Origin: Bacteroidota bacterium
Lineage (GTDB): Bacteria; Bacteroidota; Bacteroidia; JABDFU01
DNA: 64,000 nucleotides
Assembly: GCA_013286655.1 (NCBI GenBank)
Contig: JABDFG010000003.1
Coordinates: 8,906 to 72,905 of the forward strand
Direction of reading: 5' to 3'
Shown here: positions 787 through 42,616 of the stretch, one piece after another
Numbering within the stretch: position 1 is the stretch's first letter
Layout of the letters: every line of letters begins with the position of its first letter
Notes under the pieces: generated by a model
What the model saw: only the letters and a program-made list of their open reading frames with translations
What the model was told of the DNA's origin: nothing
The model's database searches: none
Program-made: the position numbers and the translations under genes

Positions 787-1194
787 TTGCTAACTTTATT
801 GAACCAGACTTTTAAAAAGACGGAACGTCTTTGTAGCAAGATACTCATTGACAAGCTTTTTAAGTATGGGCGTTCTTTTACGTTGTTTCCTTTTCGGATT
901 GTCTGGCTGGAAGTAAAACTTGATTCTTCTTCTCCTGCGCAGGTTGTATTTTCTGTACCTAAAAGAGCATTTAAACGGGCTGTTGATCGCAATAAATTAA
1001 AAAGGCGTGCACGTGAGGCTTACCGGAAGCGTAAGTTTCAATTGTACGAATTTTTAAAATTGCATAATAAAACTATTGCACTGACAATTGTTTACTCGGC
1101 TAAAGAAAAAATGGAGTATACACTTATGGAGAACAAAATAAATCAGGTGATTGAACGTTTAATTAATGAGCTCGGAAATGAGTTGGCTGAATAA
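787..1194 (+). CDS. rnpA: ribonuclease P protein component
   Basis: Basic 135-aa protein with the RnpA core [30 protein letters not shown]. Conserved rnpA-yidD adjacency. TTG start directly after the hemD stop. Confidence 0.85.
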
Positions 1195-1408
1195 ATTTTT
1201 AAGCACGGTTTTTGTTTGTATCATCCGGATCTATCAGGGAGCTATTTCTCCTTATTTAATGCCTTCCTGCAGATATACGCCTTCCTGTTCCCAGTACGGG
1301 CTGGAGGCAATTGGAAAGTATGGACCGTTTAAGGGAGGATATTTAACTTTGAAACGCTTTTTATCCTGTCACCCCTGGGGAGGGCATGGAGAGGATTTGG
1401 TTCCTTGA
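1166..1408 (+). CDS. yidD: membrane protein insertion efficiency factor YidD
   Basis: [61 protein letters not shown] is a near-textbook YidD sequence. Overlaps the rnpA 3' end by 29 nt. Confidence 0.9.
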
Positions 1409-1411
1409 GAG

Positions 1412-1550
1412 AATTAAGGAATTAGGATTTGGGAAATGCGAAGCATTCATGAACTCAGATGAAGATAAAGGAAGAGATGTGAATAATAAGGAATTGGGAT
1501 TGGGATTGAGGATTGAGGATTTGGGATTTGGGATTCGGGAATAAGGAAGG
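1412..1550. repeat. degenerate tandem heptanucleotide repeat A(A/T)TN(A/G)GG in two blocks, intergenic
   Basis: Block 1 (1412-1440): aattaagg aattagg atttggg aaatgcg. Block 2 (1485-1550): aataagg aattggg attggg attgagg attgagg atttggg atttggg attcggg aataagg aagg. The blocks are nearly C-free on the + strand. Lies between the yidD stop and the S41 peptidase ATG (1569). Confidence 0.75.
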
Positions 1551-1568
1551 ATAAAAAAAATTATAAAG

Positions 1569-3311
1569 ATGAATAAATTGAAAAAAATTTCCAGAAAAGC
1601 CAAGCTATGGATACTGGTGGTGACTATAATCGGCTCTGCGGTTATTTCCTATAGTTTCGTTGACAATTATTTCGAGATATCGAAGAACCTCGACATTTTC
1701 GCCACCTTGTTTAAAGAGCTTAACTCGCACTACGTGGACGAAACGAACCCGGGAGAATTAATGAAAAAGGGTATTGACGAAATGCTGGAGTCACTCGACC
1801 CCTATACTAATTATATTCCTGAGTCGGATATCGAAGATTATAAATACATGATGACCGGACAATATGGGGGAATCGGTGCGTTGATCCGTCAGCATGGGGA
1901 TAAAATAATGATAGCGGAGCCGTATGAGGGGAAACCTGCTCAGAAATCGGATCTCAGGGCTGGTGATGTTATTGTTGAGGTAAATGGGGTGGACGTTAAA
2001 GGGAAGAAAACAGATGAGGTAAGTAAATTACTGAAAGGTCAGCCGAATACTCCTGTGAAGATCTTATTGGAACGTGAAGGAGAAAAAAAACCATTGGAAA
2101 AAAGTGTTGTCCGCGAGGAAATTAAAATTCCGAGCGTAAGCTATTCCGGTATGATATCGGATCATGTTGGACTCATTAAATTAACTGGATTTACGGATAA
2201 TGCAGCGGCTGAAGTGAAAGACGCATTGCTTGAGCTGAAGAAGAATCCTCAGTTCAACTACCTGGTTTTTGATCTGCGTAATAACCCTGGTGGACTATTG
2301 AAGGAAGCCATTGATATTGTGAATCTGTTTGTAGATAAGGGACAGGATATTGTCAGTACAAAGGGGAAAGTAAAGGACTGGGATAAAACGCATACTGCCC
2401 AGAATGCGCCTGTTGATACGGTTACTCCGATCGTTGTGCTTGTTAACCGTGGTTCGGCATCGGCTTCTGAAATTGTGTCAGGGGCTCTGCAGGATCTGGA
2501 CCGCGCCGTTATTATCGGTCAGCGTAGCTTTGGTAAAGGTCTTGTTCAGCAAACATTGCCGCTGAGCTATAATGCTCAGCTGAAAGTGACCGTGGCTAAA
2601 TATTATATTCCGAGTGGTCGCTGTATCCAGGCGCTTAATTATTCTCACCGGAATGAAGACGGCAGTGTCGATAAAGTTCCTGATTCACTGATCACGGCAT
2701 TTAAAACGGTCAGGAACAAACGTATTGTATACGATGGCGCCGGCATCGCTCCTGATGTGGCATTGGAACCTCAGAAATATTCAAACATTTCAGTGAGCCT
2801 GCTCAATAAGTCATTTATTTTTGATTACGCTACAATGTACCGGTTTTCTCATCCGACGATTCCATCTGCTAAAAATTTTCAGTTGAGTGATGCAGAATAC
2901 GATGAGTTTGTAGCCTATCTGAAAGACAAGGAGTATGATTATAAAACCAAGACGGAAAAGCTGATGGAAGATGTGAAGAAAAGTTCGGAAGAGGAAAAGA
3001 GTTACGAAGTGGCGAAGCCCGAATTCGAGGCTCTGGATGCCAAGCTGGCACACAGCAAAAGTGAGGATCTCAAAAAGTACAAGGATGAAATAAGGGATCT
3101 TCTGGATGAGGAAATTGCTTCTCGTTACTATTTTCAAAAAGGCAGACTGGATGCTTTTATCAAATCGGATACGGAGGTTGCTGAGGCTTTAAAAGTACTG
3201 AATGACGGTAACCGGTATCGGTCTATCCTGACGACGATTGAAAAACCTACTCATCCTTTTCATGCGGATAAGTTTAAAGTAAAGGACAAAATGACGAGCG
3301 GACAAAACTAA
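1569..3311 (+). CDS. S41 family carboxy-terminal processing peptidase (PDZ-containing)
   Basis: N-terminal membrane anchor, PDZ segment LRAGDVIVEVNGVDVKGK, S41 catalytic region VNRGSASASEIVSGALQD ... GQRSFGKGLVQ. Confidence 0.85.
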   Translation: MNKLKKISRKAKLWILVVTIIGSAVISYSFVDNYFEISKNLDIFATLFKELNSHYVDETNPGELMKKGIDEMLESLDPYTNYIPESDIEDYKYMMTGQYGGIGALIRQHGDKIMIAEPYEGKPAQKSDLRAGDVIVEVNGVDVKGKKTDEVSKLLKGQPNTPVKILLEREGEKKPLEKSVVREEIKIPSVSYSGMISDHVGLIKLTGFTDNAAAEVKDALLELKKNPQFNYLVFDLRNNPGGLLKEAIDIVNLFVDKGQDIVSTKGKVKDWDKTHTAQNAPVDTVTPIVVLVNRGSASASEIVSGALQDLDRAVIIGQRSFGKGLVQQTLPLSYNAQLKVTVAKYYIPSGRCIQALNYSHRNEDGSVDKVPDSLITAFKTVRNKRIVYDGAGIAPDVALEPQKYSNISVSLLNKSFIFDYATMYRFSHPTIPSAKNFQLSDAEYDEFVAYLKDKEYDYKTKTEKLMEDVKKSSEEEKSYEVAKPEFEALDAKLAHSKSEDLKKYKDEIRDLLDEEIASRYYFQKGRLDAFIKSDTEVAEALKVLNDGNRYRSILTTIEKPTHPFHADKFKVKDKMTSGQN

Positions 3312-6702: not shown

Positions 6703-7614
6703 ATGAGCGAAAAAATCGAGCAACTTCTTGCGGGCTTGGGGCAGGGCGATAAAAAAGCCCTGGCGCGTTGCATTACCATTGTGGAAAATGAATTGGAGGG
6801 TTACGAAGAGTTACTTTATTCCCTTCCGCAAAAAAATACGATTCCTGTTATTGGTATTACCGGGCCTCCCGGTGCGGGGAAGAGTACGCTAATTAATTCC
6901 GTGATTAAAATGCTGACCGCTGACAATAAAAAGATCGGAATTATTGCGATTGATCCAACTTCTCCGTTTAATTATGGTTCCTTATTGGGGGATCGTCTGC
7001 GTATGGCGGAGCATTTTACCAATGAGGATGTGTTTATTCGTTCCCTGGCCACCCGTGGTTCATTGGGTGGCTTATCGGCTAAAATTCTGGAAGTAGTGGA
7101 TGTGATGAAGGGATTTGATTTTGATTACCTGTTTGTGGAGACGGTTGGCGTGGGGCAAAGTGAAATTGAAATTGTGGGCCTGGCGGATCTTACAATACTG
7201 GTGCTTGTGCCTGAGTCGGGAGATGAGGTGCAGACCATCAAATCCGGAGTGATGGAAATTGCGGATATTTTTGTCGTGAATAAATCGGATCGTGCGGGTG
7301 CTTCCGCTTTCGTGAAAAATATTCTTACGCTGGTTCATTCCCGCCTTGGAAAGGAAGACGAAGTGGCAACTCCTGTTATACGGGCCGTTGCCGTCAGCGG
7401 TGAAGGAACGGCTGAACTTATTCAAGCGATCGGAGAAATACATCAACATAAAATAAACAGTAAACGGTCTTTTTTATTAACGGAGAAGGCTTACCGCCTG
7501 ATTCAGAATAAACGCATGAAGGATGTGCAGAAAGGGAATTTACAAAAAATGATCGAAGTGGAATCCGGTAAGCCCGGGTTTAATTTGTATGCGTTTGTGA
7601 GGGAGTTTCAATAA
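6703..7614 (+). CDS. meaB: G3E-family GTPase MeaB/ArgK (methylmalonyl-CoA mutase-associated GTPase)
   Basis: P-loop GITGPPGAGKSTLI, VETVGVGQSE, VVNKSD. The ORF opens at 6676, but ATG 6703 (MSEKIEQLL) is the more likely start. Confidence 0.8.
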   Translation: MSEKIEQLLAGLGQGDKKALARCITIVENELEGYEELLYSLPQKNTIPVIGITGPPGAGKSTLINSVIKMLTADNKKIGIIAIDPTSPFNYGSLLGDRLRMAEHFTNEDVFIRSLATRGSLGGLSAKILEVVDVMKGFDFDYLFVETVGVGQSEIEIVGLADLTILVLVPESGDEVQTIKSGVMEIADIFVVNKSDRAGASAFVKNILTLVHSRLGKEDEVATPVIRAVAVSGEGTAELIQAIGEIHQHKINSKRSFLLTEKAYRLIQNKRMKDVQKGNLQKMIEVESGKPGFNLYAFVREFQ

Positions 7615-7893
7615 AAACAGTTCACTCTCAAATCTCCACCCCCTGCTAAATTAAATTATAGGAGTTTAATGTTAATTTGCAATAAAGTTGCACATAATTG
7701 CTATAATAATACATTTATCCTATTAATGAAATGATGACCTATAGATAGGAGTTTAATATTGAGGGTAGAATTAATTGACAAGTGGAAACCAAATACATAA
7801 TTTTATCGTAAATAGATCTATCAGTAAATGAGGGTCTAAGAGGAGATGATTGGACGATAGCAAACGGAAGGAAGCAATGAATAAAATAAAACT

Positions 7894-9357
7894 ATGAAAA
7901 CAGGAAGACTACTTTTAACATCCTTGATCTTTATTACTTTAATAAGTTCAGGGTTTGCCCAGCTTAAAAATAAATCAACAAATTCTAATAGCCGCCTTGC
8001 TGCGCAGGGGTTCGCCAGCTTATTAGATAGTAGTTATTCATGGTTATGGGATACCATTTACCATAGGTGGAATTTTTCAGCCAGGAATGTGGGTATTACC
8101 TATGATGCAAGAAACAACAAAATAAGTGGAATAAGTGAAAGCTGGATAAACGGGGAATGGGTAAAGGGAGTTAGAGATCTCTATACTTATGATGCAAATA
8201 ATAACACAACGAATGTACTAGCGCAAGGATGGACAAGCGGCTCGTGGGTGAATGGTTATCAAATGATCTATGCCTACAATGCTGATAATAAGATGACAAA
8301 TGAACTAGACCAGAGTTGGATAAATGGTGTATTGGAGAGCACCAATCAATACCTTTATACCTACGATGCCAATAATAACGTGACTGGTTTCCTAATAAAA
8401 AACCCAATGGGTGATTCGTTGGTGAATTCCTTTCAAACTCTCAATACCTACGATGCAAACAATAACCAGACAAGTCAACTTCAACAGAATTGGACAAATG
8501 GCGTATGGGTGAATGGAGGTCTGTACCTCTCCACCTATGACGCAAATAATAACAAGACAACTCAAACAAAACAAAATTGGACAAACGGAGAATGGGATAA
8601 TTCTAATCGAAACGTCTATGCCTACGATGCAAACAATAACGATACAATTCTAATATACCAGGAATGGATAGGAGCCGGATGGCAGGATGTAAATCAATCC
8701 TTCTATACCTATGATGCAAACCATAACCAGACAAGTCAAATGATTCAGTTATTGAATAATTATGTATGGGTGAATTCTAATCAAAATCTTTCAACCTATG
8801 ATTCAAAAAACAACAAGACAAGTATAATATATCAGTCATGGCGTAATAATGCATGGGAGAATTACAATCAAACCCTCTATACGTATGATGCAAATAATAA
8901 CCAGACGAGTGTCACATACCTGGTATGGAGTAATAATGTATGGGTGAATTACTCTCAATACCTCCATACTTATGATGTGAACAATAATAACATAAGTTCG
9001 TCGAGCAAATCCTGGAGCAATTACCACAGTTCATGGATCAACTTGGATAGCACTTATTCTTATTACAGCAAGCATACTATTATTACGACAGGAATAAACA
9101 CATTTAAAAATGACAAGGGTATCTCTGTTTTCCCAAACCCGAGCAGTGGCCAGATGACCGTGCACCTGGCAGGAAATGGGTATACACTTTTGAAAATAGC
9201 CGACCTGTTGGGAAGGGAAGCGTATACTCAGGTTTTATATCCTGATCAAAGTGATGCGAACTTGAGTATACATATTTCGGGTGTAAGTAATGGCATCTAC
9301 CTTTTGCAGGTTTCAATGCCCGGTCAGGTTATCAGCAGACGGCTTGTCATACAATAG
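7894..9357 (+). CDS. secreted T9SS cargo protein built from 11 exact 29-aa W..NG.W / YTYDANNN (YD-like) repeats
   Basis: Signal peptide (LIFITLISSGFAQ). The Y-D dipeptide recurs at residues 70/71, 99/100, 128/129 ... 360/361 (constant 29-aa period). C-terminal type-A sorting domain VFPNPSSGQMTVHL...GIYLLQV...RLVIQ. Confidence 0.7.
   Translation: MKTGRLLLTSLIFITLISSGFAQLKNKSTNSNSRLAAQGFASLLDSSYSWLWDTIYHRWNFSARNVGITYDARNNKISGISESWINGEWVKGVRDLYTYDANNNTTNVLAQGWTSGSWVNGYQMIYAYNADNKMTNELDQSWINGVLESTNQYLYTYDANNNVTGFLIKNPMGDSLVNSFQTLNTYDANNNQTSQLQQNWTNGVWVNGGLYLSTYDANNNKTTQTKQNWTNGEWDNSNRNVYAYDANNNDTILIYQEWIGAGWQDVNQSFYTYDANHNQTSQMIQLLNNYVWVNSNQNLSTYDSKNNKTSIIYQSWRNNAWENYNQTLYTYDANNNQTSVTYLVWSNNVWVNYSQYLHTYDVNNNNISSSSKSWSNYHSSWINLDSTYSYYSKHTIITTGINTFKNDKGISVFPNPSSGQMTVHLAGNGYTLLKIADLLGREAYTQVLYPDQSDANLSIHISGVSNGIYLLQVSMPGQVISRRLVIQ
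8071..9063 (+). repeat. intragenic tandem array, 87-bp (29-codon) period, about 11 units
   Basis: Recurrent ta(t/c)ac(c/t)ta(c/t)gatgcaaa(c/t)aataac (YTYDANNN) words at a fixed 87-bp spacing. Confidence 0.75.
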
Positions 9358-9775
9358 ATCTCGCTCTTTTTCGCTCACAGGATTGTGTAAAGCAAATAAA
9401 CATTTGTGAGGGAGTTTCGGAAGTGATTGATCTGATAAAAAAAGAACTCTTGATAAGTTGAAAAGTTCAGGTTTGAGTTGGACTTGAACCTTTTGAGCTC
9501 ACAGTAATTGACATTCCGGTCGTTTTATTGTTAGTGATTTCATATTTTTATTTTGCAATTTCAATGATTGCAACCCATATAAATTTTCGTGTTCTTGATA
9601 TATTAAGACACCCGTATCGTAAGTTTTCCGGGTTGTTTTTGAGGTTTTGTGATCTGGTTGTGCGATTGGTTCATTTACTAAAGTTCCCATCCGGCAAGTA
9701 TAGATGAAAACGGGAAGAAATAAAAACCTCGGGCAAATTTGACTAAGGTTCCGGGAATAGTAATTATGACCCAAC

Positions 9776-9794
9776 TGGTTACAAATTGTAACCA
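9776..9794. promoter_or_regulatory. perfect 19-bp palindrome, candidate toxin-antitoxin operator
   Basis: tggttacaa-a-ttgtaacca (9-bp arms, 1-nt centre). Sits 25-43 nt upstream of the TATTTTTG -7 box and 55 nt upstream of the antitoxin ATG. Confidence 0.4.
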
Positions 9795-9818
9795 ACTTAA
9801 AATGCAGATATTTATGCT

Positions 9819-9826
9819 TATTTTTG
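9819..9826 (+). promoter_or_regulatory. Bacteroidota-type -7 promoter box
   Basis: TATTTTTG matches the TAnnTTTG consensus, 23 nt upstream of ATG 9849. Confidence 0.35.
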
Positions 9827-9848
9827 TGATAAACAAAACGTAAATCTC

Positions 9849-10091
9849 ATGATTTCTGCAACCGTAAAAAAGGAATTAAGTACATATTTGCCCTTATTGT
9901 CTGCCCGTCAACAGGCACTGGTTTTAGATATGATAAAAAGTATTCTGCACGTTGACCCAAAGGAAAAACGGGTCAGCGTGGAAAAATACAATACTGAAAT
10001 CGAATTGGCTCTGAAAGAGGTTAAGCAGGGAAAGAGCATTAGCCACGATGAAGTTGTAAAACAGAGCAGGAAGTGGCTAAAAAGAAAATAA
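9849..10091 (+). CDS. putative antitoxin of a ParE/RelE-type toxin-antitoxin pair
   Basis: 80-aa acidic/basic protein immediately upstream of, and overlapping by 19 nt, a ParE-like toxin reading frame. The family assignment itself is not recognised. Confidence 0.45.
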   Translation: MISATVKKELSTYLPLLSARQQALVLDMIKSILHVDPKEKRVSVEKYNTEIELALKEVKQGKSISHDEVVKQSRKWLKRK

Positions 10092-10383
10092 AGCTTGAGT
10101 GGAACAGGGAGGCATCTATACATTTCGATGAGATACTCGAAGACTTATACGAAGAATCTGAAATAGCTGCCTCTATTGTCGGTAATGCTATTTTAGATGA
10201 AATCGAAAGTTTAAAAATCGATCATTACTCAACAGCTCATCCCTTGGATCGTTTTAAGAAAACAATGACGAGAATTTTCGGGCCTGTATTGTTTATAGCT
10301 ACAGGATTTCCTATTACATAGATGGTGACGTAATTTATATTTTGAGAATTCGCCATACCAGCCGGGAACCGTTAGATTTTTAA
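10073..10383 (+). pseudogene. ParE/RelE-family type II toxin, disrupted by a frameshift near 10258-10264
   Basis: Frame 2 gives KIKLEWNREASIHFDEILEDLYEES...HPLDRFKK. Frame 1 continues NNDENFRACIVYSYRISYYIDGDVIYILRIRHTSREPLDF* (stop at 10381-10383). Joined, this is a typical ParE sequence. The switch falls in the aagAAAAc run. Confidence 0.7.
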
Positions 10384-10528
10384 TCTACTCCTGAAGCGTT
10401 TTATTCCCATATTTATAGCAATTCTCATTCCTGGCATCAACCTTTCGTCAGGAGAGACCAGAAAATTATAGGAGATTGAGGAAATGGGTATTAGACGAAT
10501 TCATCTTTCACTACGAACAGAGAAATTC

Positions 10529-11302
10529 TTAGTTTGCATGCATTGCTGCCACAGGTTTGCTCAATTGTTTTAAAATGAAGGATGGAAAAAACCGGCTCAT
10601 AAATCTCAACTGACTCGATTGCCCCGGACATATTTCATACGTGTCATTCTCAAATCCCTTCATAAAACCAGCAACCATATTTTGGACAGACATAAGGGAT
10701 ATTCCCTTCATATCAGACTCCTTAAAATTTTTGAGCAACTCCGTTTCGGTTGCCGGAGGTGCCAATTCAAAGACTTTTATATCTGTATTCCTTAGTTGTT
10801 CTCTAAGGGATAAGGTGTACGAATGTAGAGCAGCTTTGGAAGCGCAATAAATCGGTGAGATCGCTAATGGAACGAAAGCTAAACCTGATGAAACTGTGAC
10901 TGTTGCCGTATTTTTGTTTTTCTTTAACAATGAAATAAAGGCATCATTCATCCATATAGTTCCTTTTACATTATTATCTATTTCTTTTGTCAGATCTGTC
11001 GCAGACAATTTATGTTTTTGCAAATCGATAGTATACATTACACCCGCATTGTTGATTAGAATATTAAGTTCAGGGTAGTCTTTCGCAACCTGATCATAAA
11101 GTTCTTTTACATCATTTGGATTACTCACATCACTCTTGAAAGTAATAAGCCCGTTTAACTCCTTTTTTGCCTTTTGCAATTTTTGCTCATTACGCCCGGT
11201 AACAATAACGGTGTTCTTCCTTTTGATGAATTCTTTTGCCATCTCGTAACCAATGCCACTGGCGCCGCCTGTAATTAAAATTGTGTTTCCGCTTATTTTC
11301 AT
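10529..11302 (-). CDS. short-chain dehydrogenase/reductase (SDR) family oxidoreductase
   Basis: ILITGGASGIGYEMAKEF (TGxxxGxG), NNAG, catalytic YCASKAA. Confidence 0.85.
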   Translation of the reverse strand: MKISGNTILITGGASGIGYEMAKEFIKRKNTVIVTGRNEQKLQKAKKELNGLITFKSDVSNPNDVKELYDQVAKDYPELNILINNAGVMYTIDLQKHKLSATDLTKEIDNNVKGTIWMNDAFISLLKKNKNTATVTVSSGLAFVPLAISPIYCASKAALHSYTLSLREQLRNTDIKVFELAPPATETELLKNFKESDMKGISLMSVQNMVAGFMKGFENDTYEICPGQSSQLRFMSRFFPSFILKQLSKPVAAMHAN

Positions 11303-11516
11303 GTTTGTGTTATAAGAATTAGTTATGATAAAGTCCTTAAAGATACTCGTTTTTATCAGGGTTTATACCTATTATGTGAAGTAAAAAATTGGCTTATCTG
11401 TGAAACATGTAATCTTTAAGAAAAGTTATGTAATCCTCCTGCGCTTTTTTCTGTTCAATTTGGCTTGACGAAATTTTATCAACAATTTAATATGGGAAGC
11501 ATACCTAAAAATTGAT

Positions 11517-11684
11517 ATGTATAAATATTCCATGTGGGTGTATATAGTCTTCATTGTTGTAATGGTAGTCATCATATTTGGGGTAGATTTCCTTTTTTTT
11601 AGAGATCATTTCTGGGCACGACTGCTTGTCAACATAGGAATTGTCTTGGTGTTCGCGGCATTTTACCTTCGGTTCTTGAAGTAG
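11517..11684 (+). CDS. hypothetical 55-aa two-helix membrane peptide (below the ORF-track cutoff)
   Basis: MYKYSMWVYIVFIVVMVVIIFGVDFLFFRDHFWARLLVNIGIVLVFAAFYLRFLK has two clean hydrophobic helices. The antisense track ORF 11505..11708 has no comparable features. Confidence 0.4.
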   Translation: MYKYSMWVYIVFIVVMVVIIFGVDFLFFRDHFWARLLVNIGIVLVFAAFYLRFLK

Positions 11685-11756
11685 TTCACAGTTTATGCGT
11701 AATATCAATCCATTTTACTAATTTTAAAGATATAAACAGATATATACAATAGACTC

Positions 11757-17443: not shown

Positions 17444-18844
17444 TTAAGACTTAATCAATGTGAAATAAAATACTGCTCCTTCGTTTACTTTTCCTTCCGC
17501 CCATACTCTTCCGCCATGTTTGGTAATAATCCTTTGAACAATGGCCAACCCTACCCCGGTTCCCTCAAATTCATCTTCAGAATGAAGGCGCTGAAATACT
17601 CCAAAAAGTTTGTTTATATACCGCATGTCGAAACCGGCACCGTTATCCTTTATATAATAAATTATTTCATCGCCTTTTATTTCAGAGCCAATTTCAATAA
17701 TTGGTTTTTCTTTAAATCCGGAGTATTTAATAGCATTTGAAATAAGGTTTACCCAAACTTGTTTTATTGCAACGCTGTCTGCCTGAGCAGGGATTAGGGG
17801 TTGAATACGGAATTCAATTTTAGTGTGACCTTCTCCATTTCGAAATTCGTGACAGATATTCTCCACCATTTCATTCATCAGAATTTTGATCTTAACCAAT
17901 TCTTTGCGTCCAAGGCGCGAAAAGGTGAGAAGGTCATCAATTAGCTGCCCCATTTTTTTTGCATTGCCAATGATATTACCCATCAACCGCTTTGCTTCAG
18001 TATCCAGTAGGCTTTCATATTTATCTTTATGCATCTGCGCATATCCAAGTATTGCGCGGAGTGGAGCCCGTAAATCATGAGATACGGAATAGGAGAATGA
18101 TTCCAACTCTTTATTAACGGCTTCCAGTTGGGCCGTTCGGTCTATTTTCTCCTCGTTTTGAAAGGCCAATTCGTTATTTGCAATTATCAACTCCGCCGCT
18201 CTCTTTTCCTTCTCTTCGTTTTGAAAAGCAAGTTCTATGTTGGCAATGCCTAATTCTCCGGCCCTTCTTTCCTTTTCCTTATTTTGAAAGGCAAGTTCTT
18301 TATTTGCAATTTTTAATTCGGCAGCGCGTTTTTCTTTCTCAATATTCTGAAAAGCCAGTTCTTTATTAGCAATTATTAGTTCCGCCGCCCGTTTGCCTTT
18401 CTCTTCGTTTTGAAAGACCAATTCTATATTCGCCAGACCCAATTCAGCAGCTCGTTTTTCTTTCTCCTTATTTTGAAAACTAAGTTCTGTATTGGCAATG
18501 CTCAGCTCTGCAGCTCGTTTTTCCTTCCTTTGGTTTTCAATGGCTAGTTCTTTGTTGGCAATAATTAACTCAGCAGCACGTTCTTCTTTTTCTTCGTTTT
18601 GAAAGGCAAGTTCATGATTTGCAATGACTAACTCTGCAGCGCGTTTTTCTTTTTCCTTATTTTGAAACGCCAATTCTTTATTAGCTATGCTTAACTCGTT
18701 AGCACGTTTTTCTTTCTCCTCATTTTGAAACGCGAGTTCTTTATTGGCTATACTTAATTCTGCGGCTCGTTTCTCCTTCTCCTCATTCTGAAAAGCAAGC
18801 TCCTTATTGGCAAAAATTAATTCATCTGATTTCTTTTTGTCCAA
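17444..18844 (-). CDS. soluble histidine kinase whose entire N-terminal region is 11 tandem 21-aa coiled-coil repeats
   Basis: Residues 8-238 are 11 x EL(I/S)[18 protein letters not shown]. They run straight into HisKA ([19 protein letters not shown]) and HATPase_c (DNGAGFD...GTGVGLAIV). No TM, PAS, GAF or other sensor domain. TTG start. Confidence 0.85.
18131..18823 (-). repeat. 63-bp tandem repeat array, 11 units, in frame
   Basis: Repeated ttgaaa(a/g)gc(a/c)a(g/a)ttc...gc(a/c)at..ttaa(c/t)tc.gc.gc.cg.tt.tc words across lines 18121-18840. Units are diverged at the DNA level. Confidence 0.9.
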
Positions 18845-18993: not shown

Positions 18994-21900
18994 TCACAAT
19001 GAAGCGGGAATGTAAATATCAATCCGAGTGCCCTTATTTAATTTACCTGTTGCGGTAATAACGCCTTTGTGGTTTTCAACAATTCGTTTACAAATAGCAA
19101 GTCCAATACCTGTACCTTTATATTTATCAAACTCGTGAAGGCGTTGGAATACTTCAAAAATCCGATCCTTATACTGTGGGTCGAAACCGATACCGTTGTC
19201 GCTAACAGTTAAGTGACAATAGTTGACTTCAGGTAAGAGATCTTTTATATTTAATATGCTTCCTGATTTAATTTCGCACTTTATCGTTATACGTGGAAAT
19301 CGTTTAGGATATGAAAACTTTAGAGAGTTGCTGATAAGATTTTGTATGATCTGACGGAACTGGAAGCGAATAATGTTTGCATTGCAAAGTCCATCGACTT
19401 TGATAGTTGCTTTTTTTTCTATCAAAGTTTCCTTAAAATCCGCTATAACTTCTTTAACAATTTCAGTGAGAGTTGTGTTTTCGAAATTATGTGCTCCATT
19501 CTTTACACGTGAATAAGCAAGTAAATCTTCAATGAGCATCTGCATTCTTTTAACCGTGTCCATCATTCTATTCAAATAATCCTTCCCTTTTTCTGATAAA
19601 TTTTCCTTTTCATCCCGGATTATAGAATCTGAAAAGTTTTTTATTTTACGTAAAGGTTCCTGCAAATCGTGGCTCGAAATAAAAGTGAATGTTTCCAATT
19701 CCTTATTCATTTTTTCCAGAAAAGTATTCTTTTCTTCAAGAGTTTTATAACTTTCATCCAATTCAGATGTTCGTTCATTGATAATATTTTCCAATCCCTT
19801 TTTTTCTGCTTTCCGTTTGCGTGTACTCTCTGTTATATCGGTAAAAGCAAGCAAAATCAATTGCTCGTTTTGAGATTTCTGTACAATTCGTTTTGCATTG
19901 AGCAACATTGTTTTCTTACCTATTCCGGGAAAAAAATGGGTAATTTCATAATCGTTGAAGTAATTATCTTTTTGAATAATACTTTCCAAAAGTTCGCGCA
20001 GACGTGGAATATCCCATTGGTGATTACCTAATTCATACAACAGATTTCCCTCCGTGTCTTTTTGGAGAACCATGAATTTTTTATAGAACGCTTTATTGGC
20101 TGATTTTATCCGAAGGTCTTTTCCAAGGATGAGAAAGGGCTCATGCATTGTCGCTGCAATGGCAATGGCAAAGTTATAAGTTTCCGTAAGTTGCTCGTTC
20201 CGTGTTTGTAATTCTTCATTTGTAGAAGTAAGCTCTTCATTAGTTGCTTCAATTTCTTCCTTGGAGGTTTCAAGTTCTTCATTCAGGCTCTGAAACTCTT
20301 CATTGGTTGAAACAATTTCTTCATTAGCAGCCTGCAATTCTTCGTAAGCTGTTTCCCTTGCTTCTATAATAGAATGCATTTCGGCATGCGCGCTATTCAA
20401 TTCTTCTGCCAGTTTTTTTATTTTCCGGTTTTTTTCTGTTGAATTATTATTTGAGTCTTTACCATTATGACTATAATCATCCGCAGGCTCCTGTATCGTA
20501 AAAACAATGAGGAGAATCGGCTCCTCCCATTCAATATCAAGAGGATGTACCTGTAAAGTTATTGTCCTCAATGTGGAATCAAAATTCATTTCAATATCCG
20601 ATTTCCTGACAGGCTTCTTTGTTTTAATAGCTTTGTGAATCACGGAACGCAATTCAAAAGCAAATTCAGGGCGTACCATTTTTAAAATATTCAAACTGGC
20701 ATTACCTGAAGAATGCCTTAGAAACAAAGATGTGGAGCCTCTGAATTTAAGAATTTCCATATCCTTATTAATTATGGCACAAGCCGGCACATAATTGGAG
20801 AGAAGAGTGGAATCGATAACATTATCGAGTTCTGTTGAATTAAAGTGTGTGTTTTTCGATGCAACCTTGATATTTTTTGGAGTAATAGCCGTCCGTGGAA
20901 AATGAGGCAGCAGTTCTGGCACCTTACGTAAACCTGCATTTTTTTTCTTGGAGAAAATTGCGAATCTATTATCTACACGTGAAAAAAGCTGAGAAGATGT
21001 TCCGACAGTTTCTGATTGCCCCATCATTAAATATTTCCCCTCATTCAAGGCAAAATAAAAAAGCGCCAGTGCTTTTTTCTGGGCAACCGGGTCAAAATAA
21101 ATAAGAAGATTTCGGCAACTGATTAAATCCAACCGTAAAAAAGGCGGATCACGCAGAACATTGTGCGGAGCAAACACACACATTTCCCTGATCTCTTTAA
21201 CTATTTTGTAGTGATTATTGGTCTTCACAAAAAAGCGCTTAAGACGTTCTTTGCTGACGGGCTTTACATCACTTTGCGAATATTCACCGATTCGGGCATC
21301 ATGTATAGCCTGGTCACTGAGATCAGTGGCGAAAATCTGTATGGGATTTTTTTTGCTTTTATTATCCTGCAATTCAATTATCAGCATAGCAATTGTATAG
21401 ACTTCCTCTCCTGTCGAACAAGCAGGTACCCATATTCGTATTGTTTCTTCGGCTGTTTTGCTTTTAAGAATTCTAGGAAGTATTGTTGTTCTTAAATACG
21501 GGAAAATTTCTTTATCCCTGAAAAATCTGGTTACATTAATAAGTAAGTCCTTGTAAAGTATATCGACCTCCTGACTCTTTTTTAATAACAACCTGGCATA
21601 TCCCTTTAATGTCTTTTCTCCGCATTGAAGCATCCTGTTTTGAATCCTTCTTTTAATGGTAGCTATTTTATACCTTCCGAAATCAACATTTATTTTTTTG
21701 TGCAAGATGTCCAGAACGGTCTTCAAAGCCGGATCACTATCTTCAATGGTCATGTCTTCCACCTCGTTTTTAATCTCTCGCCTCAAAAATCCACTTTTGC
21801 TAAAGCGTATAAATTCACGTGCAATTTCCTGTGGTGATAAAACAAAATCAACCACTCCCGATGCAATAGCAGATTGAGGCATGCTGTGTGCCTGCGCTGA

Positions 21901-22410
21901 ACCATCCTGAGCAAAAGTCATGCCTCCGGCGTCTTTAATTGCCTTTAACCCAATGGTGCCATCATGCAGATTACCTGATAGAATCACACCAATGACATTT
22001 TCTTTATGAGTTAGTGCCAACGAGGAAAAAAGGATATCAATGGAAATGGCATTTCCGTCTTTCGACCGAGGAATCAATTTTATATGACCGTCCATTACCG
22101 TAATTCCTTTATTATAAGGAATTACGTAAACATTATTTGGCTTAATAAGTTCCATATCATCTATCTCCTGAACGTCCATTTTGGTTATTTTCGATAAAAT
22201 GGAAGTGAGATAACTTTTATGATCCTTATTGAGGTGCTGTACAATAATATATGCCATTCCGGTATCATCCGACAAATTTTTCAATAAAGCTGAAACGGCT
22301 TCCAGCCCCCCAGTGGAGGCGCCAATGGCAACCACCGGAAAAGATTTTTTTTGGACCTTATAGGGCGCGTCAGATTGTTTTTTTTGAACAGATGATTTTT
22401 TTCTTGCCAC
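18994..22410 (-). CDS. CheB methylesterase - CheR methyltransferase - PAS - heptad coil - PAS - HisKA/HATPase fusion kinase
   Basis: CheB: FPVVAIGASTGGLEAVSALL. CheR: VTRFFRDKEIFPYL...IWVPACSTGEEVYTIAM...ISCRNLLIYF. Coil: ELQAANEEIVSTNEEFQSLNEELETSKEEIEATNEELTSTNEELQTRNEQL. HisKA: FTFISSHDLQEPLRKIKNF. HATPase: DNGIGFD...GTGIGLAICK. GTG start. Confidence 0.85.
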   Translation of the reverse strand: MARKKSSVQKKQSDAPYKVQKKSFPVVAIGASTGGLEAVSALLKNLSDDTGMAYIIVQHLNKDHKSYLTSILSKITKMDVQEIDDMELIKPNNVYVIPYNKGITVMDGHIKLIPRSKDGNAISIDILFSSLALTHKENVIGVILSGNLHDGTIGLKAIKDAGGMTFAQDGSAQAHSMPQSAIASGVVDFVLSPQEIAREFIRFSKSGFLRREIKNEVEDMTIEDSDPALKTVLDILHKKINVDFGRYKIATIKRRIQNRMLQCGEKTLKGYARLLLKKSQEVDILYKDLLINVTRFFRDKEIFPYLRTTILPRILKSKTAEETIRIWVPACSTGEEVYTIAMLIIELQDNKSKKNPIQIFATDLSDQAIHDARIGEYSQSDVKPVSKERLKRFFVKTNNHYKIVKEIREMCVFAPHNVLRDPPFLRLDLISCRNLLIYFDPVAQKKALALFYFALNEGKYLMMGQSETVGTSSQLFSRVDNRFAIFSKKKNAGLRKVPELLPHFPRTAITPKNIKVASKNTHFNSTELDNVIDSTLLSNYVPACAIINKDMEILKFRGSTSLFLRHSSGNASLNILKMVRPEFAFELRSVIHKAIKTKKPVRKSDIEMNFDSTLRTITLQVHPLDIEWEEPILLIVFTIQEPADDYSHNGKDSNNNSTEKNRKIKKLAEELNSAHAEMHSIIEARETAYEELQAANEEIVSTNEEFQSLNEELETSKEEIEATNEELTSTNEELQTRNEQLTETYNFAIAIAATMHEPFLILGKDLRIKSANKAFYKKFMVLQKDTEGNLLYELGNHQWDIPRLRELLESIIQKDNYFNDYEITHFFPGIGKKTMLLNAKRIVQKSQNEQLILLAFTDITESTRKRKAEKKGLENIINERTSELDESYKTLEEKNTFLEKMNKELETFTFISSHDLQEPLRKIKNFSDSIIRDEKENLSEKGKDYLNRMMDTVKRMQMLIEDLLAYSRVKNGAHNFENTTLTEIVKEVIADFKETLIEKKATIKVDGLCNANIIRFQFRQIIQNLISNSLKFSYPKRFPRITIKCEIKSGSILNIKDLLPEVNYCHLTVSDNGIGFDPQYKDRIFEVFQRLHEFDKYKGTGIGLAICKRIVENHKGVITATGKLNKGTRIDIYIPASL

Positions 22411-37076: not shown

Positions 37077-38216
37077 TTAACAGGGCAATGCAAAACAAAA
37101 TGTAGCACCTTTACCTACTTCCGCTTCTGCATATATCCTTCCTCCATGTTTGTTTATGATACGTTGCGCAATCGCCAAACCTACTCCTGTTCCTTCAAAT
37201 TCTTCATCTGTATGTAAACGCTGAAAAACACCAAATAATTTGTCCGCATACTTCATGTCAAATCCTTCGCCGTTATCTTTTATCATATAGGTGACTTGAT
37301 GATTTTTCCTTTCGGATGTTATTTCAATCAGGGAATTCTTCTTTTTGGAAGAATATTTTATACCATTTGAAATCAGATTGATTGCGACTTGCTTGATCAG
37401 AGCGTAATCCCCTTTGACCGGATCTAATGTATTTACTTTTATTTCTGCCTTATGATTCGTTGTGTTTTTTAAATCTGTTAGTATTTCCTCAATTAGGAGA
37501 TTCATGTCAATGTCTGTTTCCTGAATAGGTTTTTTTCCCAGTCTTGCAAAAGTTAACAAGTCATCAATCAGGTTGTTCATCTTTATGGCATTATCCTGAA
37601 CGGCTGATAATACTCTTTTCCCTTCCTTATCAAAAAGCGGGCTAAAATCCTCTTCCAGTATCCTTGTATATCCATCTATGGCGCGTAAGGGAGCCCTCAG
37701 ATCATGTGATACAGAATAAGAAAAGGCTTCCAGCTCCTTATTTACTGCTTCCAACTGTTGCGTACGTTGCTCAATAACAGCCTGTTGTTCCATGATCTTT
37801 GTGATATTAATGAAAAAAGATATCAGGTAATTCTCTCCGTTCATTTCCATCAGCTCAATGGATGATACGGTATGAACTGTTGTCCCGTCTTTTGCGATGC
37901 ATCTAACATAATCATTTTGTAGCCTGCCTTTTTCTTGTATGATGTAGCCCACTCTGACGGATTCTTCCCTATCAAGGATTCCTATTTCTACAGATGTCCG
38001 GCCGATGATATCCGATTCAGCATAGCCGAAAGTTTCTAAAAATTTCTTATTGACTCTTACATAGGTTCTTTTTCCCGGAGCGGTAGTTGTCATGCTCATG
38101 CAAACGGGACTGTTGTTGAATAAGGTTAAAAGTCCCGCTCTGCTTTCCTTGAAAAGCTTCCTGGCCGTATCCAGGTTTTCAACAGTAATCGTATCAGAAA
38201 ATAAGTCCATCGGCAA
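37077..38216 (-). CDS. PAS-domain sensor histidine kinase
   Basis: PAS block, then [28 protein letters not shown] (HisKA) and DNGEGFD...[10 protein letters not shown] (HATPase_c). The kinase core is paralogous to 17444..18844. Confidence 0.85.
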   Translation of the reverse strand: MPMDLFSDTITVENLDTARKLFKESRAGLLTLFNNSPVCMSMTTTAPGKRTYVRVNKKFLETFGYAESDIIGRTSVEIGILDREESVRVGYIIQEKGRLQNDYVRCIAKDGTTVHTVSSIELMEMNGENYLISFFINITKIMEQQAVIEQRTQQLEAVNKELEAFSYSVSHDLRAPLRAIDGYTRILEEDFSPLFDKEGKRVLSAVQDNAIKMNNLIDDLLTFARLGKKPIQETDIDMNLLIEEILTDLKNTTNHKAEIKVNTLDPVKGDYALIKQVAINLISNGIKYSSKKKNSLIEITSERKNHQVTYMIKDNGEGFDMKYADKLFGVFQRLHTDEEFEGTGVGLAIAQRIINKHGGRIYAEAEVGKGATFCFALPC

Positions 38217-39999: not shown

Positions 40000-41136
40000 C
40001 TAATTTGCCGGGATATAAATATCAAAGGTTGCTCCTTTTTTTAGTTCGCTCGTAGCGATGATGATGCCGTTGTGATTTTCTACTATTTTCTTAACGATGG
40101 CTAGCCCGATTCCTGTACCTGCATATACGTCTTTGTTGTGAAGTTTTTGGAATACTTCAAAAATTCGCTCGCTGAAATGAGGTTCAAATCCGATGCCGTT
40201 GTCCTGAACAGTGATGTGACAATAATTTTTTTCCGGTGAAAATTTTTTATTATTTAATTTACTTCCTTTTACAATTCTGCTTTTTATTATTATGTGTGAT
40301 GGCACATCAGGTTGTGAAAATTTGAGCGCGTTGCTTATCAAATTGTACATGAGCTGGCGAAATTGAAAAACAATAATGTTGGCAGAGCAGAGCTGATCGG
40401 CTTCGATGCTTGCGTGTTTTTCAAAAATGGTATCTTTTAATTCGGCTGTGACCTCTTCAATAATTATTTTCAGTTCGGTTTTTTCAAATTTGAGTTCGGT
40501 AGTATTGATACGGGAGAATGCAAGTAAGTCGTCGATGAGTTGTTGCATTCTGCCGGCCGCTAATTGCATCCGTTGAAAATTGTATTTGCCATTGTCAGAT
40601 AGATTCTTATTCTCATTTTCGAGTATTATCGTGACAAAGGTTTGTATTTTACGAAGAGGTTCCTGCAAATCGTGGCTTGATACGTACGTAAATGCTAATA
40701 GCTCTTTGTTGGCAATAATTAACTCTGCCGCTCGTTTTTCTTTCTCTTCATTTTGAAAGGCGAGTTCTTTGTTGGCAATGATTAACTCTGCCGCTCGTTT
40801 TTCTTTCTCTTCATTTTGGAAGGCGAGTTCTTTGTTAGCGACAATTAATTCGGCTGCCCGTTTTTCTTTCTCTTCATTTTGAAAGGCTAGTTCTTTGTTG
40901 GCAATGATAAGTTCTGCCGCCCGTTCTTCTTTCTCTGTTACCTGTTTCTCCAGTTCTGTGTTGGCAATAATGAATTCGGCTGCCCGTTTTTCTTTCTCGT
41001 GGTTTTGGAAAACGAGTTCTTTATTGGCAATGACTAATTCTGCTATTAGTTTCCCCTTCTCTTCTTTTTCAACAGCAAGTTCCCTGCGAACAGTGCTTAG
41101 CTCGTGTCTGTCCAATTTAGTTGTATCCGTCATCAT
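40000..41136 (-). CDS. soluble histidine kinase with an N-terminal array of 21-aa coiled-coil repeats (second copy of this architecture)
   Basis: Five clean repeats plus two degenerate ones of EL(I/V)(I/V)[17 protein letters not shown]. They run directly into HisKA (FTYVSSHDLQEPLRKIQTF) and HATPase_c (DNGIGFE...GTGIGLAIVK). No sensor domain. The kinase core is paralogous to the CheB/CheR kinase. Confidence 0.85.
   Translation of the reverse strand: MMTDTTKLDRHELSTVRRELAVEKEEKGKLIAELVIANKELVFQNHEKEKRAAEFIIANTELEKQVTEKEERAAELIIANKELAFQNEEKEKRAAELIVANKELAFQNEEKEKRAAELIIANKELAFQNEEKEKRAAELIIANKELLAFTYVSSHDLQEPLRKIQTFVTIILENENKNLSDNGKYNFQRMQLAAGRMQQLIDDLLAFSRINTTELKFEKTELKIIIEEVTAELKDTIFEKHASIEADQLCSANIIVFQFRQLMYNLISNALKFSQPDVPSHIIIKSRIVKGSKLNNKKFSPEKNYCHITVQDNGIGFEPHFSERIFEVFQKLHNKDVYAGTGIGLAIVKKIVENHNGIIIATSELKKGATFDIYIPAN
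40726..41103 (-). repeat. 63-bp tandem repeat array, about 6 units, with two adjacent units differing at 2 of 63 nt
   Basis: The units starting at ~40704 and ~40767 (ctttgttggcaat(a/g)attaactctgccgctcgtttttctttctcttcattttg(a/g)aaggcgagtt) are almost identical. Confidence 0.9.
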
Positions 41137-41153
41137 TTATTGTTTTAACAGAC

Positions 41154-41618
41154 TCAACTGTGCAAATTACTTTGCACAGTGAGTACAAAATTATCTCTGG
41201 TGGGTAATGTTCTTTTTTCCTGGGCTATATGTATGAGCGTTTGATAAACGATCGCTTTAAATTGTGAAAAGATGGATGGTTTTCGAATGAAATAATGTGC
41301 CCCATTTTTGTAAAGCAGATTCACAACTTCTTGTTCAAAGGAGGTGGAAAAAATAATGACAGGAAGGTGTTTCAATTTTTCACTTGACTTTATTTCTGAT
41401 AAACATTCAAAACCGTTTTTTCGTGGCATATTCAGATCAAGGAAAAGAACATGTGGGAGGTTATTCGCTTCGGTTGCGAGATAGTCCATGAGTTGTTCTC
41501 CGTTATGCATGGTTGCGAGGGTTGTGGGGATTGCTAAATCCTTTAACGCATCTTTAAAAAAGATGCAGTCATCCGTATCGTCATCTGCAAGCAGGATATT
41601 CAATTGGGTCAAACTCAT
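41154..41618 (-). CDS. stand-alone response-regulator receiver
   Basis: ILLADDDTDDCIFFKDAL...VLFLDLNMPRKNGFECLSEIKSSEKLKHLPVIIFSTS, plus the C-terminal motif LPTRDNFVLTVQ. Confidence 0.9.
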   Translation of the reverse strand: MSLTQLNILLADDDTDDCIFFKDALKDLAIPTTLATMHNGEQLMDYLATEANNLPHVLFLDLNMPRKNGFECLSEIKSSEKLKHLPVIIFSTSFEQEVVNLLYKNGAHYFIRKPSIFSQFKAIVYQTLIHIAQEKRTLPTRDNFVLTVQSNLHS

Positions 41619-41621
41619 TGG

Positions 41622-42080
41622 CTAAGGATGTATATTAATTAAGCGAATTTTTTCTACAACCTTTGTAAGGGCCTGACCGATGGCCTGTTGGAGTTGTGCC
41701 AAATCACTGGACTTGTGGATGTAATCGTTCGCTCCGATCTTGAAAAGATTGGCTATCATTTCCCGTTCATAATTCTTGTCCTGTGGAAATGATGTTGAAA
41801 ACATGATCACATAGAGGTTCTTGAGCTTTTCATTTTCTTTTATCTCGGACAGGCATTCAAAACCATTTTTTCGAGGCATATTCAGGTCAAGAAAAAGAAC
41901 ATCGGGAAGGTGTTCCGAATGTTCGGAAAGGTATTTCATCAGCTCCTCTCCATCATTAACGATTGTAAGGGTGCGGGATATTGTTAGTTTCTCCAATGCC
42001 TTATCAAAAAACTGACGATCGTCAGAGTCATCATCTGCAAGCAGAATGCTAATAGGAGCTTTTTGTTGTAGTACGTTCAT
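41622..42080 (-). CDS. stand-alone response-regulator receiver
   Basis: ILLADDDSDDRQFFDKAL...VLFLDLNMPRKNGFECLSEIKENEKLKNLYVIMFSTS. Lacks the C-terminal motif of its paralogs. Confidence 0.9.
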   Translation of the reverse strand: MNVLQQKAPISILLADDDSDDRQFFDKALEKLTISRTLTIVNDGEELMKYLSEHSEHLPDVLFLDLNMPRKNGFECLSEIKENEKLKNLYVIMFSTSFPQDKNYEREMIANLFKIGANDYIHKSSDLAQLQQAIGQALTKVVEKIRLINIHP

Positions 42081-42085
42081 CAGAT

Positions 42086-42616
42086 TTAATTAAATTTAGG
42101 GGCCATGGGAAGTGCGAAGAAATTATTGAACCAAAACAGAGGCTTGGAATTTTTCCGTTCCACTGTAAGCAAAAAATATTCTTTTTTTGGTTGTAAAATG
42201 TTTCCTTCAGCTATAAGCATAAGTGTTTGTTGAACTGCTTGTTTGAGATGTAAAATCTCAGTTGGTTTACTTATATAGTAATTTGCTCCGTTCTCATAAA
42301 GAATGTCCGCAATCTTCTTATGGAATGTCGTGGAATAAATAATTATCGGAAGCATTTTCAATTTTTCGTTTGACTTTATTTCTGATAAACATTCAAATCC
42401 GTTTTTCCGGGGCATGTTCAGATCGAGGAAAAGAGCGTGAGGAAGCTGATTGGTTTCACTTGTGAGGTGGTTCATTAGCTGTTCTCCATCGGCTACTGTT
42501 GTCAGCGTAATCGATAGTGAAAATTCTTTGAGCGCTTCCTTAAAAAAAGTGTGATCATCTGCGTCATCATCTGCCAGCAGGATGTTAAGAGAGGTTTTGT
42601 TTTGTTTCGGTTCCAT
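42086..42616 (-). CDS. stand-alone response-regulator receiver with an extended C-terminus
   Basis: ILLADDDADDHTFFKEAL...ALFLDLNMPRKNGFECLSEIKSNEKLKMLPIIIYSTT, then QPKKEYFLLTVE and a 20-aa hydrophobic tail. Confidence 0.9.
   Translation of the reverse strand: MEPKQNKTSLNILLADDDADDHTFFKEALKEFSLSITLTTVADGEQLMNHLTSETNQLPHALFLDLNMPRKNGFECLSEIKSNEKLKMLPIIIYSTTFHKKIADILYENGANYYISKPTEILHLKQAVQQTLMLIAEGNILQPKKEYFLLTVERKNSKPLFWFNNFFALPMAPKFN

Follow-up and report, generated by a model that had tools for sequence, protein, structure and literature searches.

We analysed a 64,000-nucleotide stretch of the Bacteroidota assembly GCA_013286655.1 (contig JABDFG010000003.1, positions 8,906 to 72,905), hereafter referred to as the window. 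The soluble histidine kinase K2, an open reading frame (ORF) on the minus strand at 40000–41136, has 378 residues arranged as an N-terminal cap, an array of 21-residue units, a HisKA domain, and a HATPase_c domain. The array is likely to form a stalk, in which a coiled coil resembling the signalling helix (S-helix) has been amplified and is continuous with the helix of the dimerization and histidine phosphotransfer (DHp) domain. With K2, a stalk family that is widespread and apparently undescribed gains a second member in the window, on a two-component lineage other than that of the first, the kinase K1 (gene at 17444–18844).

The architecture of the array was derived from Tandem Repeats Finder together with a reading of the gene frame. 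Six full units of 63 bp or 21 residues, termed u1–u6, occupy 40726–41103 on the minus strand, exactly the range given in an earlier note on this DNA. Following the cap (residues 1–11, MMTDTTKLDRH; 41104–41136, minus strand), u1 at 41041–41103 (minus strand; ELSTVRRELAVEKEEKGKLIA) is degenerate, u2 (ELVIANKELVFQNHEKEKRAA) is at or near consensus, u3 (EFIIANTELEKQVTEKEERAA) is degenerate, and u4, u5, and u6, the last at 40726–40788 (minus strand), are at or near consensus. The junction unit u7 (40663–40725, minus strand) starts with ELIIANKEL and continues as LAFTYVSSHDLQ, which comprises the pre-H-box and the H-box. The count of five clean and two degenerate units in the earlier note holds when the fused u7 is taken as clean. 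Tandem Repeats Finder itself outlined a 63-bp array at 40703–41043 with 5.4 copies, 79% matches, and a score of 400. In frame, the array follows the family consensus with a 63-bp period, every ANKEL alanine in K2 sits at the phospho-acceptor His minus (13 + 21n), and the junction sequence ANKELLAFTY recurs throughout the K2-type clade. A 95-residue, Ser/Phe-rich ORF on the plus strand (40895–41182), opposite the array, is a shadow ORF and was not taken for a gene. We also treated as spurious the Pfam assignment PF24081 ('PH_SLA1', SLA1-like PH) on the repeat, which has zero significant stretches on what is a low-complexity helix. This label appears, in precomputed and new Pfam scans alike, on 40726–41103, on the K1 array, and on most homologues, which suggests that a coiled-coil repeat is systematically misannotated; in practical terms, automated pipelines wrongly assign a 'PH_SLA1' domain to the repeat.

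The HisKA domain covers residues 149–211 (40504–40692, minus strand; Pfam, 7.7e-10) and the HATPase_c domain residues 259–377 (40006–40362, minus strand; Pfam, 8.4e-21). They are the only Pfam domains of K2, and neither a sensor domain, a transmembrane segment, CheB, CheR, nor PAS was found in the Pfam and protein scan. The phospho-acceptor His155 (codon at 40672–40674, minus strand) is located in the H-box SHDLQEPL and is invariant across 38 homologues, and so are N265, N269, D312-G314-G316, and G340-G342-G344, which represent the N, G1, and G2 boxes of HATPase_c. By sequence, K2 is a HisKA-type (class I) kinase, having a DHp domain with an H-box His and a HATPase_c domain with N, G1, and G2 boxes. 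A single-sequence AlphaFold2 prediction had a poor core with a predicted local distance difference test score (pLDDT) of 62, and the prediction was repeated with an alignment of 38 sequences. In the second model, one helix extends unbroken from residue 9 to residue 174, where DHp helix 1 ends, and includes the whole array and His155; DHp helix 2 spans residues 181–212 and is followed by a confident catalytic domain. The mean pLDDT is 78, with values of 68–81 in the array. Comparisons of both sequence and model returned bacteriophytochrome histidine-kinase domains and HK853 as the best matches among solved structures, the solved kinases matched including 8f71. Because the sequence matches begin only at residue 130, no solved structure spans the repeat. 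The whole N-terminal region of ca. 146 residues, or 21–22 nm, is predicted to be one α-helix unbroken into DHp helix 1. In the kinase dimer, this stalk would most likely pair as a parallel coiled coil.

The unit sequence is what allows a heptad register to be assigned. Among 1348 units, only positions 3, 7, 10, 14, 17, and 21 are variable; their 4-3-4-3-4-3 spacing defines an exposed b/f stripe and fixes the register. Position a is taken by L2, L9, and K16, position d by A5, Q12, and R19, position e by N6, N13, and A20, position g by E1, E8, and E15, and position c by I4, F11, and K18. The two halves of the unit differ in character, with a hydrophobic zipper (L2, A5, L9) in one and a polar, charged, salt-bridge-rich segment (Q12, K16, R19) in the other. 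In the same 1348 units, Ile4 (0.90) and Phe11 (0.95) are near-invariant, as exemplified by the unit at 40852–40914 of the window. Codon differences between near-consensus units are synonymous in 1812 cases and change an amino acid in 743, and hence the unit sequence is held by selection at the protein level and not by recent copying, with the exception of one nearly identical pair of units described below.

The array keeps a conserved heptad phase to the phospho-acceptor His. In 183 homologues, 1479 of 1530 AN.EL motifs (96.7%) share one offset modulo 7 to this His, and 1335 of them share one offset modulo 21. We then inspected the spacings between successive motifs in 343 proteins (n = 2284). 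The spacing is 21 residues in 2092 cases and 42 or 63 in 145, the latter arising from degenerate units missed by the motif pattern. The other 47 spacings are not multiples of 21, and 41 of these 47 are still multiples of 7 (28, 35, 49, 56, 70). The binomial probability of this outcome, given a chance of 1/7, is 1e-28, a value that is too extreme, since some events are common to related proteins and hence not fully independent. Most of the 41 spacings are due to duplication of the heptad EKEKRA(A/E). Such duplications are in frame, lengthen the unit from 21 to 28 residues, and recur in unrelated members of the family (L022 7181–8572 (minus strand), P0069, and P0030); spacings of 28 residues were counted 24 times and those of 35 residues 13 times in the 343 proteins. 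As length changes come in steps of 7 or 21 residues, the helical phase into the phospho-acceptor His is never shifted.

The same data bear on the possibility that the array is an unpaired, stiff single α-helix of the ER/K type that serves as a spacer to hold something at a distance. The NEEKEKR stretches contain i/i+4 Glu–Lys/Arg pairs as in single α-helix domains, and the stalk is a straight helix in the monomer AlphaFold2 model. However, L2, A5, and L9 are invariant hydrophobics on one face of the helix, which is continuous with DHp helix 1, an obligate dimer interface. A free spacer would not need insertions strictly quantised in heptads, and nothing is present at the far end of the K2 stalk to be held off. 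A single-helix spacer is consequently unlikely, and we favour the coiled coil. Several points weigh against the latter. The AlphaFold2 model is that of a monomer, and both the dimer pairing and the strand orientation are putative. Q12, K16, and R19 give half of every unit a polar 'core'. The conserved I4 and F11 at position c, which form the main loose end, are not explained by a simple two-stranded coiled coil and hint that the stalk may assemble into a higher-order bundle or present a surface to a partner. Finally, the conserved phase cannot reflect transmission from sensor to kinase in K2, because K2 is devoid of an upstream sensor.

K1 and K2 carry the same type of array on different kinase cores. 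The K1 array has 11 units at 18131–18823 (minus strand), of which Tandem Repeats Finder detected 10.8 copies with 73% matches at 18146–18823. Since clean K1 and K2 units have only 43–53 of 63 bases in common, the K1 array is much more diverged in DNA from that of K2, and its own best window at lag 63 has 10 mismatches; the earlier note, which placed this array 18 kb away, had likewise called its DNA much more diverged. There is no sign of unit exchange between the two arrays, the best unit pair sharing 53 of 63 bases. As for the cores, K2 is 58% identical to its closest paralogue in the window, the CheB/CheR-PAS kinase (18994–22410, minus strand), and K1 is 57% identical to its own, the PAS kinase at 37077–38216 (minus strand), while K1 and K2 are only 36% identical to each other. 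All HisKA cores in the genome were collected for maximum-likelihood trees and the approximately unbiased (AU) test. K2 forms a group with the CheB/CheR kinase plus one contig-29 kinase that lacks the repeat (support 100/99), as does K1 with the PAS kinase plus one repeat-free contig-79 kinase (support 99/98). The AU test rejected a clade of K1 and K2 (p = 2.0e-5) as well as a single clade of all repeat-bearing rows (p = 1.2e-5). The receivers split in the same manner: the three stand-alone receivers upstream of K2, termed REC1–3, show 51–58% identity among themselves and with the CheB/CheR operon receiver, against only 28% with the one beside K1. The three statements of the earlier note on the kinase cores, namely that the K2 core is paralogous to that of the CheB/CheR-fused kinase, that the K1 core matches the PAS kinase, and that the array sits on two kinase lineages, are all supported by these results. 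The core phylogeny that the note had named as a check would have exposed K1 and K2 as simple recent duplicates of one repeat-kinase. Their identical architecture and common unit consensus would fit such an origin, but it is practically untenable given that the cores are far closer to repeat-free paralogues than to each other, that the AU test rejects their grouping, that the partner receivers come from different lineages, and that the arrays share just 43–53 of 63 bases.

The repeat-free kinases indicate where the unit may have come from. Throughout the superclade, they have (A/V)NKELE.F before the H-box and an S-helix-type ERT, DRT, or QRT further upstream. The linker of the repeat-free kinase on contig 79, ERTLELEVANKELESF, aligns with the unit without a gap and with the same spacing. 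ERT, DRT, or QRT is also present in the last helix of K1. The unit itself is without ERT, the aligned position reading KRA in every K2 unit (R 0.98 and A 0.98 in the 1348 units). From these sequences, the most fitting view of the unit is that of a signalling-helix piece that was amplified and modified, and that lacks the ERT signature and is not a single segment. The 21-residue, three-heptad unit would then be a modified copy of the native signalling-helix/pre-H-box segment, for which ERTLELEVANKELESF is the native form. Each lineage might also have amplified its own pre-H-box helix convergently, with no transfer of a module. All superclade kinases possess the native (A/V)NKELE.F, which resembles part of the unit, and the junctions differ, in that K1 retains a native stretch of 16 residues after the array while the K2 array joins directly. 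Such an independent origin is nonetheless highly improbable: one 21-residue consensus is shared by both lineages and all other architectures, including at positions that a coiled coil leaves unconstrained, and the repeat-free sisters are unrelated in sequence upstream of NKEL. The module would rather be homologous everywhere, and domain shuffling would have distributed it among several kinase lineages and among proteins with phosphatase, cyclic-di-GMP, or chemoreceptor outputs.

The distribution of the unit is sparse and patchy. The K1 and K2 arrays are the only two in this genome's assembly, a draft of 125 contigs that is 72.6% complete. The unit was found in 8 of 41 related genomes, and in 10 of 300 high-quality genomes from across the phylum (9 of 144 genera). 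With K2 residues 33–146 as the query, we searched 1.84 billion representative proteins and obtained 1642 clusters at E ≤ 1e-3, 1028 at E ≤ 1e-10, and 438 at E ≤ 1e-30. Kinase core types were counted in the best 148 clusters, in which 12 are of the K2 type (QEPLRKI), 19 of the K1 type (SHDL[RK][AST]P), and 37 of a third, hybrid type (SHE[IL]RTP). A Pfam tally on a 68-member half-sample of these clusters gave HisKA plus HATPase_c in 47, PAS in ca. 35, Receiver in 19, CHASE3 in 6, HD in 4, GAF in 4, and GGDEF in 2; two array proteins in the other half of the sample are SpoIIE phosphatases. In genome G215, a soluble methyl-accepting chemotaxis protein (MCP; L031 4161–5522 (minus strand), G215:C20; MCPsignal, 4.9e-36) has an 8-unit array as its N-terminus, and its gene sits in a complete cluster of CheW, CheR-TPR, CheW, MCP, CheA-REC, and CheB. 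The number of copies per array ranges from 2 to at least 18 across the family. The portable module that the earlier note saw on two kinases is thus carried more widely, by a third core type and by SpoIIE, PAS-GGDEF, HD, CHASE3, and MCP proteins.

In 59 of 145 representatives, the array starts inside the first 45 residues, and it is the only part of these proteins that is not an output region. Such N-terminal arrays, the several output classes, and the strong protein-level selection allow another reading of the sequences, in which the array would itself be a sensor. A metastable coiled coil, with its zipper and salt bridges, might respond to temperature or ionic strength, and the copy number might then act as a heritable knob for threshold or cooperativity. 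We rate this as possible, with a rather low probability. If true, kinases, PP2C phosphatases, cyclic-di-GMP enzymes, and chemoreceptors would all have taken up one self-contained input module, whose copy number varies between strains by 63-bp slippage.

The nearly identical pair mentioned above consists of the 63-bp blocks 40704–40766 and 40767–40829 (minus strand), whose phase is offset from that of the units. They differ at 2 of 63 positions, as the earlier note had counted, and both mismatches are synonymous (TTC/TTT for Phe and ATC/ATT for Ile). The longest exact direct repeat at lag 63 in the K2 array is 38 nt. The remaining adjacent units across nine arrays have 6–22 mismatches in 63. 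The sequence supports a fresh unit duplication or gene conversion as the source of the pair. An orthologue from the same genus (G005) likewise belongs to a cassette with three receivers, and its core is 80% identical to that of K2 in amino acids and 75% in nucleotides. This kinase is longer, with 463 residues, 10 units, and one in-frame duplication of 7 residues, compared with the 7 units of K2. The units of the two orthologues show no one-to-one orthology, and the three kinase-proximal units share 52–57 of 63 bases within a species versus 48–52 between K2 and the orthologue. Among 195 K2 homologues, unit counts range from 0 to 13, and the position of the phospho-acceptor His forms a ladder of 153, 174, 195, 216, 237, 258, and 279. 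Only 22% of 27 pairs with cores at least 95% identical have equal unit counts. Metagenome alleles of 461, 482, and 503 residues occur at one locus, on contigs with the same neighbours, and their cores are 100% identical. Two contigs, L025 and L026, have no mismatch in 3 kb of flank and are one exact 63-bp unit apart, while L027, with 8 mismatches over 3 kb of flank, carries one additional unit of distinct sequence. In all three, an Ice_binding (PF11999) gene at 811–1653 (minus strand) adjoins the polymorphic stalk-kinase locus, which suggests a cold habitat for these organisms. Between species and between strains alike, array length turns over quickly with the heptad phase retained. The array would grow and shrink by whole 63-bp units, and occasionally by single heptads, through slipped-strand mispairing or unequal recombination between neighbouring units. 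The earlier note's proposal of recent duplication or conversion with copy-number instability is borne out insofar as comparison reaches, by the 10 versus 7 units, the 22% of equal counts, and the 63-bp alleles.

Two reservations concern these counts. A collapse during assembly might account for L025 and L026 being exactly 63 bp apart, and the 7 units of K2, counted in a draft, may be a minimum if the assembly merged identical copies. The length difference of L027 is no such collapse, because its extra unit has its own sequence. Taken further, the nearly identical pair, or the whole copy number, might be an artefact of assembling a short-read metagenome bin, seeing that the draft genome is in 125 contigs and that tandem repeats with exact matches of 38 nt can be misassembled. 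We consider this improbable, as the two blocks differ at two positions, in frame and both synonymous, the congeneric orthologue has the same pattern, and independent assemblies with contigs of 4.1 and 5.3 Mb hold neighbouring units with only 6 mismatches in 63.

K2 is the last gene of a cassette on the minus strand. REC1 (42086–42616) is the first cassette gene and is followed by REC2 (41622–42080), REC3 (41154–41618; Pfam Response_reg, 1.2e-16), and K2, with gaps of 5, 3, and 17 nt, respectively; all three receivers are stand-alone by Pfam. A cassette of two or three stand-alone receivers and then a stalk kinase is kept at seven loci in different organisms, among them L022, L028, L029, and L030, and the flanking genes differ. 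At L030, on a 4.1-Mb contig, the three-receiver cassette with a K2-type kinase is directly followed by a gene (7537–11724, plus strand) for a 1395-residue CheB/CheR/PAS/HisKA/HATPase/REC protein, an adjacency that echoes that of K1 and the CheB/CheR kinase in the window. The small draft genome of K2 encodes three long CheB/CheR-kinase-like ORFs with CheR (1144, 1207, and 1293 residues; C3:29873–30442, C44:11349–11918, and C12:22668–23243). Judging from the gene order and the domain content, K2 may phosphorylate or dephosphorylate at least one of REC1–3. The stalk would be the only possible regulatory element of K2, and would set the balance between kinase and phosphatase activities toward at least one of the three co-transcribed receivers.

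The constant company of receivers also speaks for a different role of the stalk, as a docking or modification platform that recruits receivers or other stalk proteins, or that is methylated by nearby CheB/CheR-type enzymes. As many as 15 of the 21 unit positions are near-invariant, including the surface residues I4, F11, E15, and K18, and two or three stand-alone receivers are always in the cassette. A precedent is the S-helix of Bacillus cereus RsbK, which is methylated by RsbM and contributes to binding of a REC domain (PMC4574943). Arrays lie beside CheB/CheR genes at four loci, namely K1 in the window, L030, G215, and G223, the last being of the same genus as G215 and having array and CheR side by side. 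However, receiver number does not track unit number, three receivers being found with 6 to 10 units. Methylation sites in classical MCPs have the context EE-x-x-A-S/T, from which the EEKEKRAA of the unit departs. CheR is present in 7 of 10 array genomes, compared with 141 of 300 overall, and absent from three complete ones (G091, G095, and G023). The array as a methylation substrate of CheB/CheR kinases is weakened by the lack of CheR in 3 of 10 complete array genomes together with the poor site fit. A docking or modification platform is therefore a doubtful alternative to the amplified coiled coil.

In bacterial signalling proteins, coiled-coil helices act as the wiring. To our knowledge, the effects of linker length and phase on output have so far been studied with engineered linkers. 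The repeat family would provide a natural linker series, in which a near-invariant unit is present in 2 to at least 18 copies, lengths are quantised in heptads, the outputs are many, and close strains differ. It raises the questions, open to direct tests with natural alleles, of whether stalk length tunes the balance between kinase and phosphatase, whether a sensor-less stalk can sense, and whether coding repeats are a fast means of retuning a pathway.

We compared the stalk with the systems that it resembles most. No published description of the 21-residue repeat was found by searching with the unit sequence or with words, in a literature whose journal coverage is incomplete; the papers near the topic are general ones on S-helices, linkers, and poly-HAMP arrays. 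The S-helix, described by Anantharaman, Balaji and Aravind in 2006, is a heptad-periodic segment of ca. 40 residues, or five heptads, that lies between two domains and bears an ERT signature with the Arg at position d (PMC1592074). The stalk likewise is a heptad-periodic helix N-terminal to a DHp domain and has an Arg at position d (R19 of the unit). It differs from the S-helix in being a 21-residue repeat with KRA instead of a single segment with ERT, and the K2 array is N-terminal, with seven tandem units and no upstream domain, rather than between domains. The second comparison is with the PAS/LOV-DHp linkers of YF1/FixL. Experiments on YF1 linkers into DHp showed that the activity, and even the sign of the signal, depend on length modulo 7 (PMC6798134). 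These linkers and the stalk have in common a helix continuous into DHp helix 1 and a modulo-7 length rule; theirs are short and unique, whereas the stalk is a long array of one near-invariant unit and is often sensorless. This dependence of coiled-coil linker activity on length modulo 7 would be the reason why only heptad multiples survive in the arrays.

The third comparison is with poly-HAMP arrays, which occur in soluble kinases and chemoreceptors such as AskA and Aer2 and in which a concatenated helical module constitutes the input (Coles et al., 2026; PMC13446029). The 21-residue array similarly concatenates one helical module and is found on kinases and a soluble MCP. A HAMP domain has ca. 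50 residues, with two helices and a connector that form a four-helix bundle, whereas the stalk unit has 21 residues and no connector. In K2, HAMP had no Pfam match at E ≤ 0.01, and the unit lacks a Gly/Pro connector and is predicted to be part of a single unbroken helix. The poly-HAMP array is the nearest described architectural analogue of the stalk, built from a different module. The MAC1 CheB/CheR kinases (methyl-accepting coiled-coil proteins; MiST 3.0, PMC6943060) resemble K2 in that the K2 core and its receivers are paralogous to those of the CheB/CheR kinase in the window, at 58% and 51–56% identity, respectively, and both have heptad-repeat helices. Different from these kinases, K2 has neither CheB, CheR, nor PAS, and its repeat is a 21-mer as opposed to the NEELxST 7-mer of the CheB/CheR kinase.

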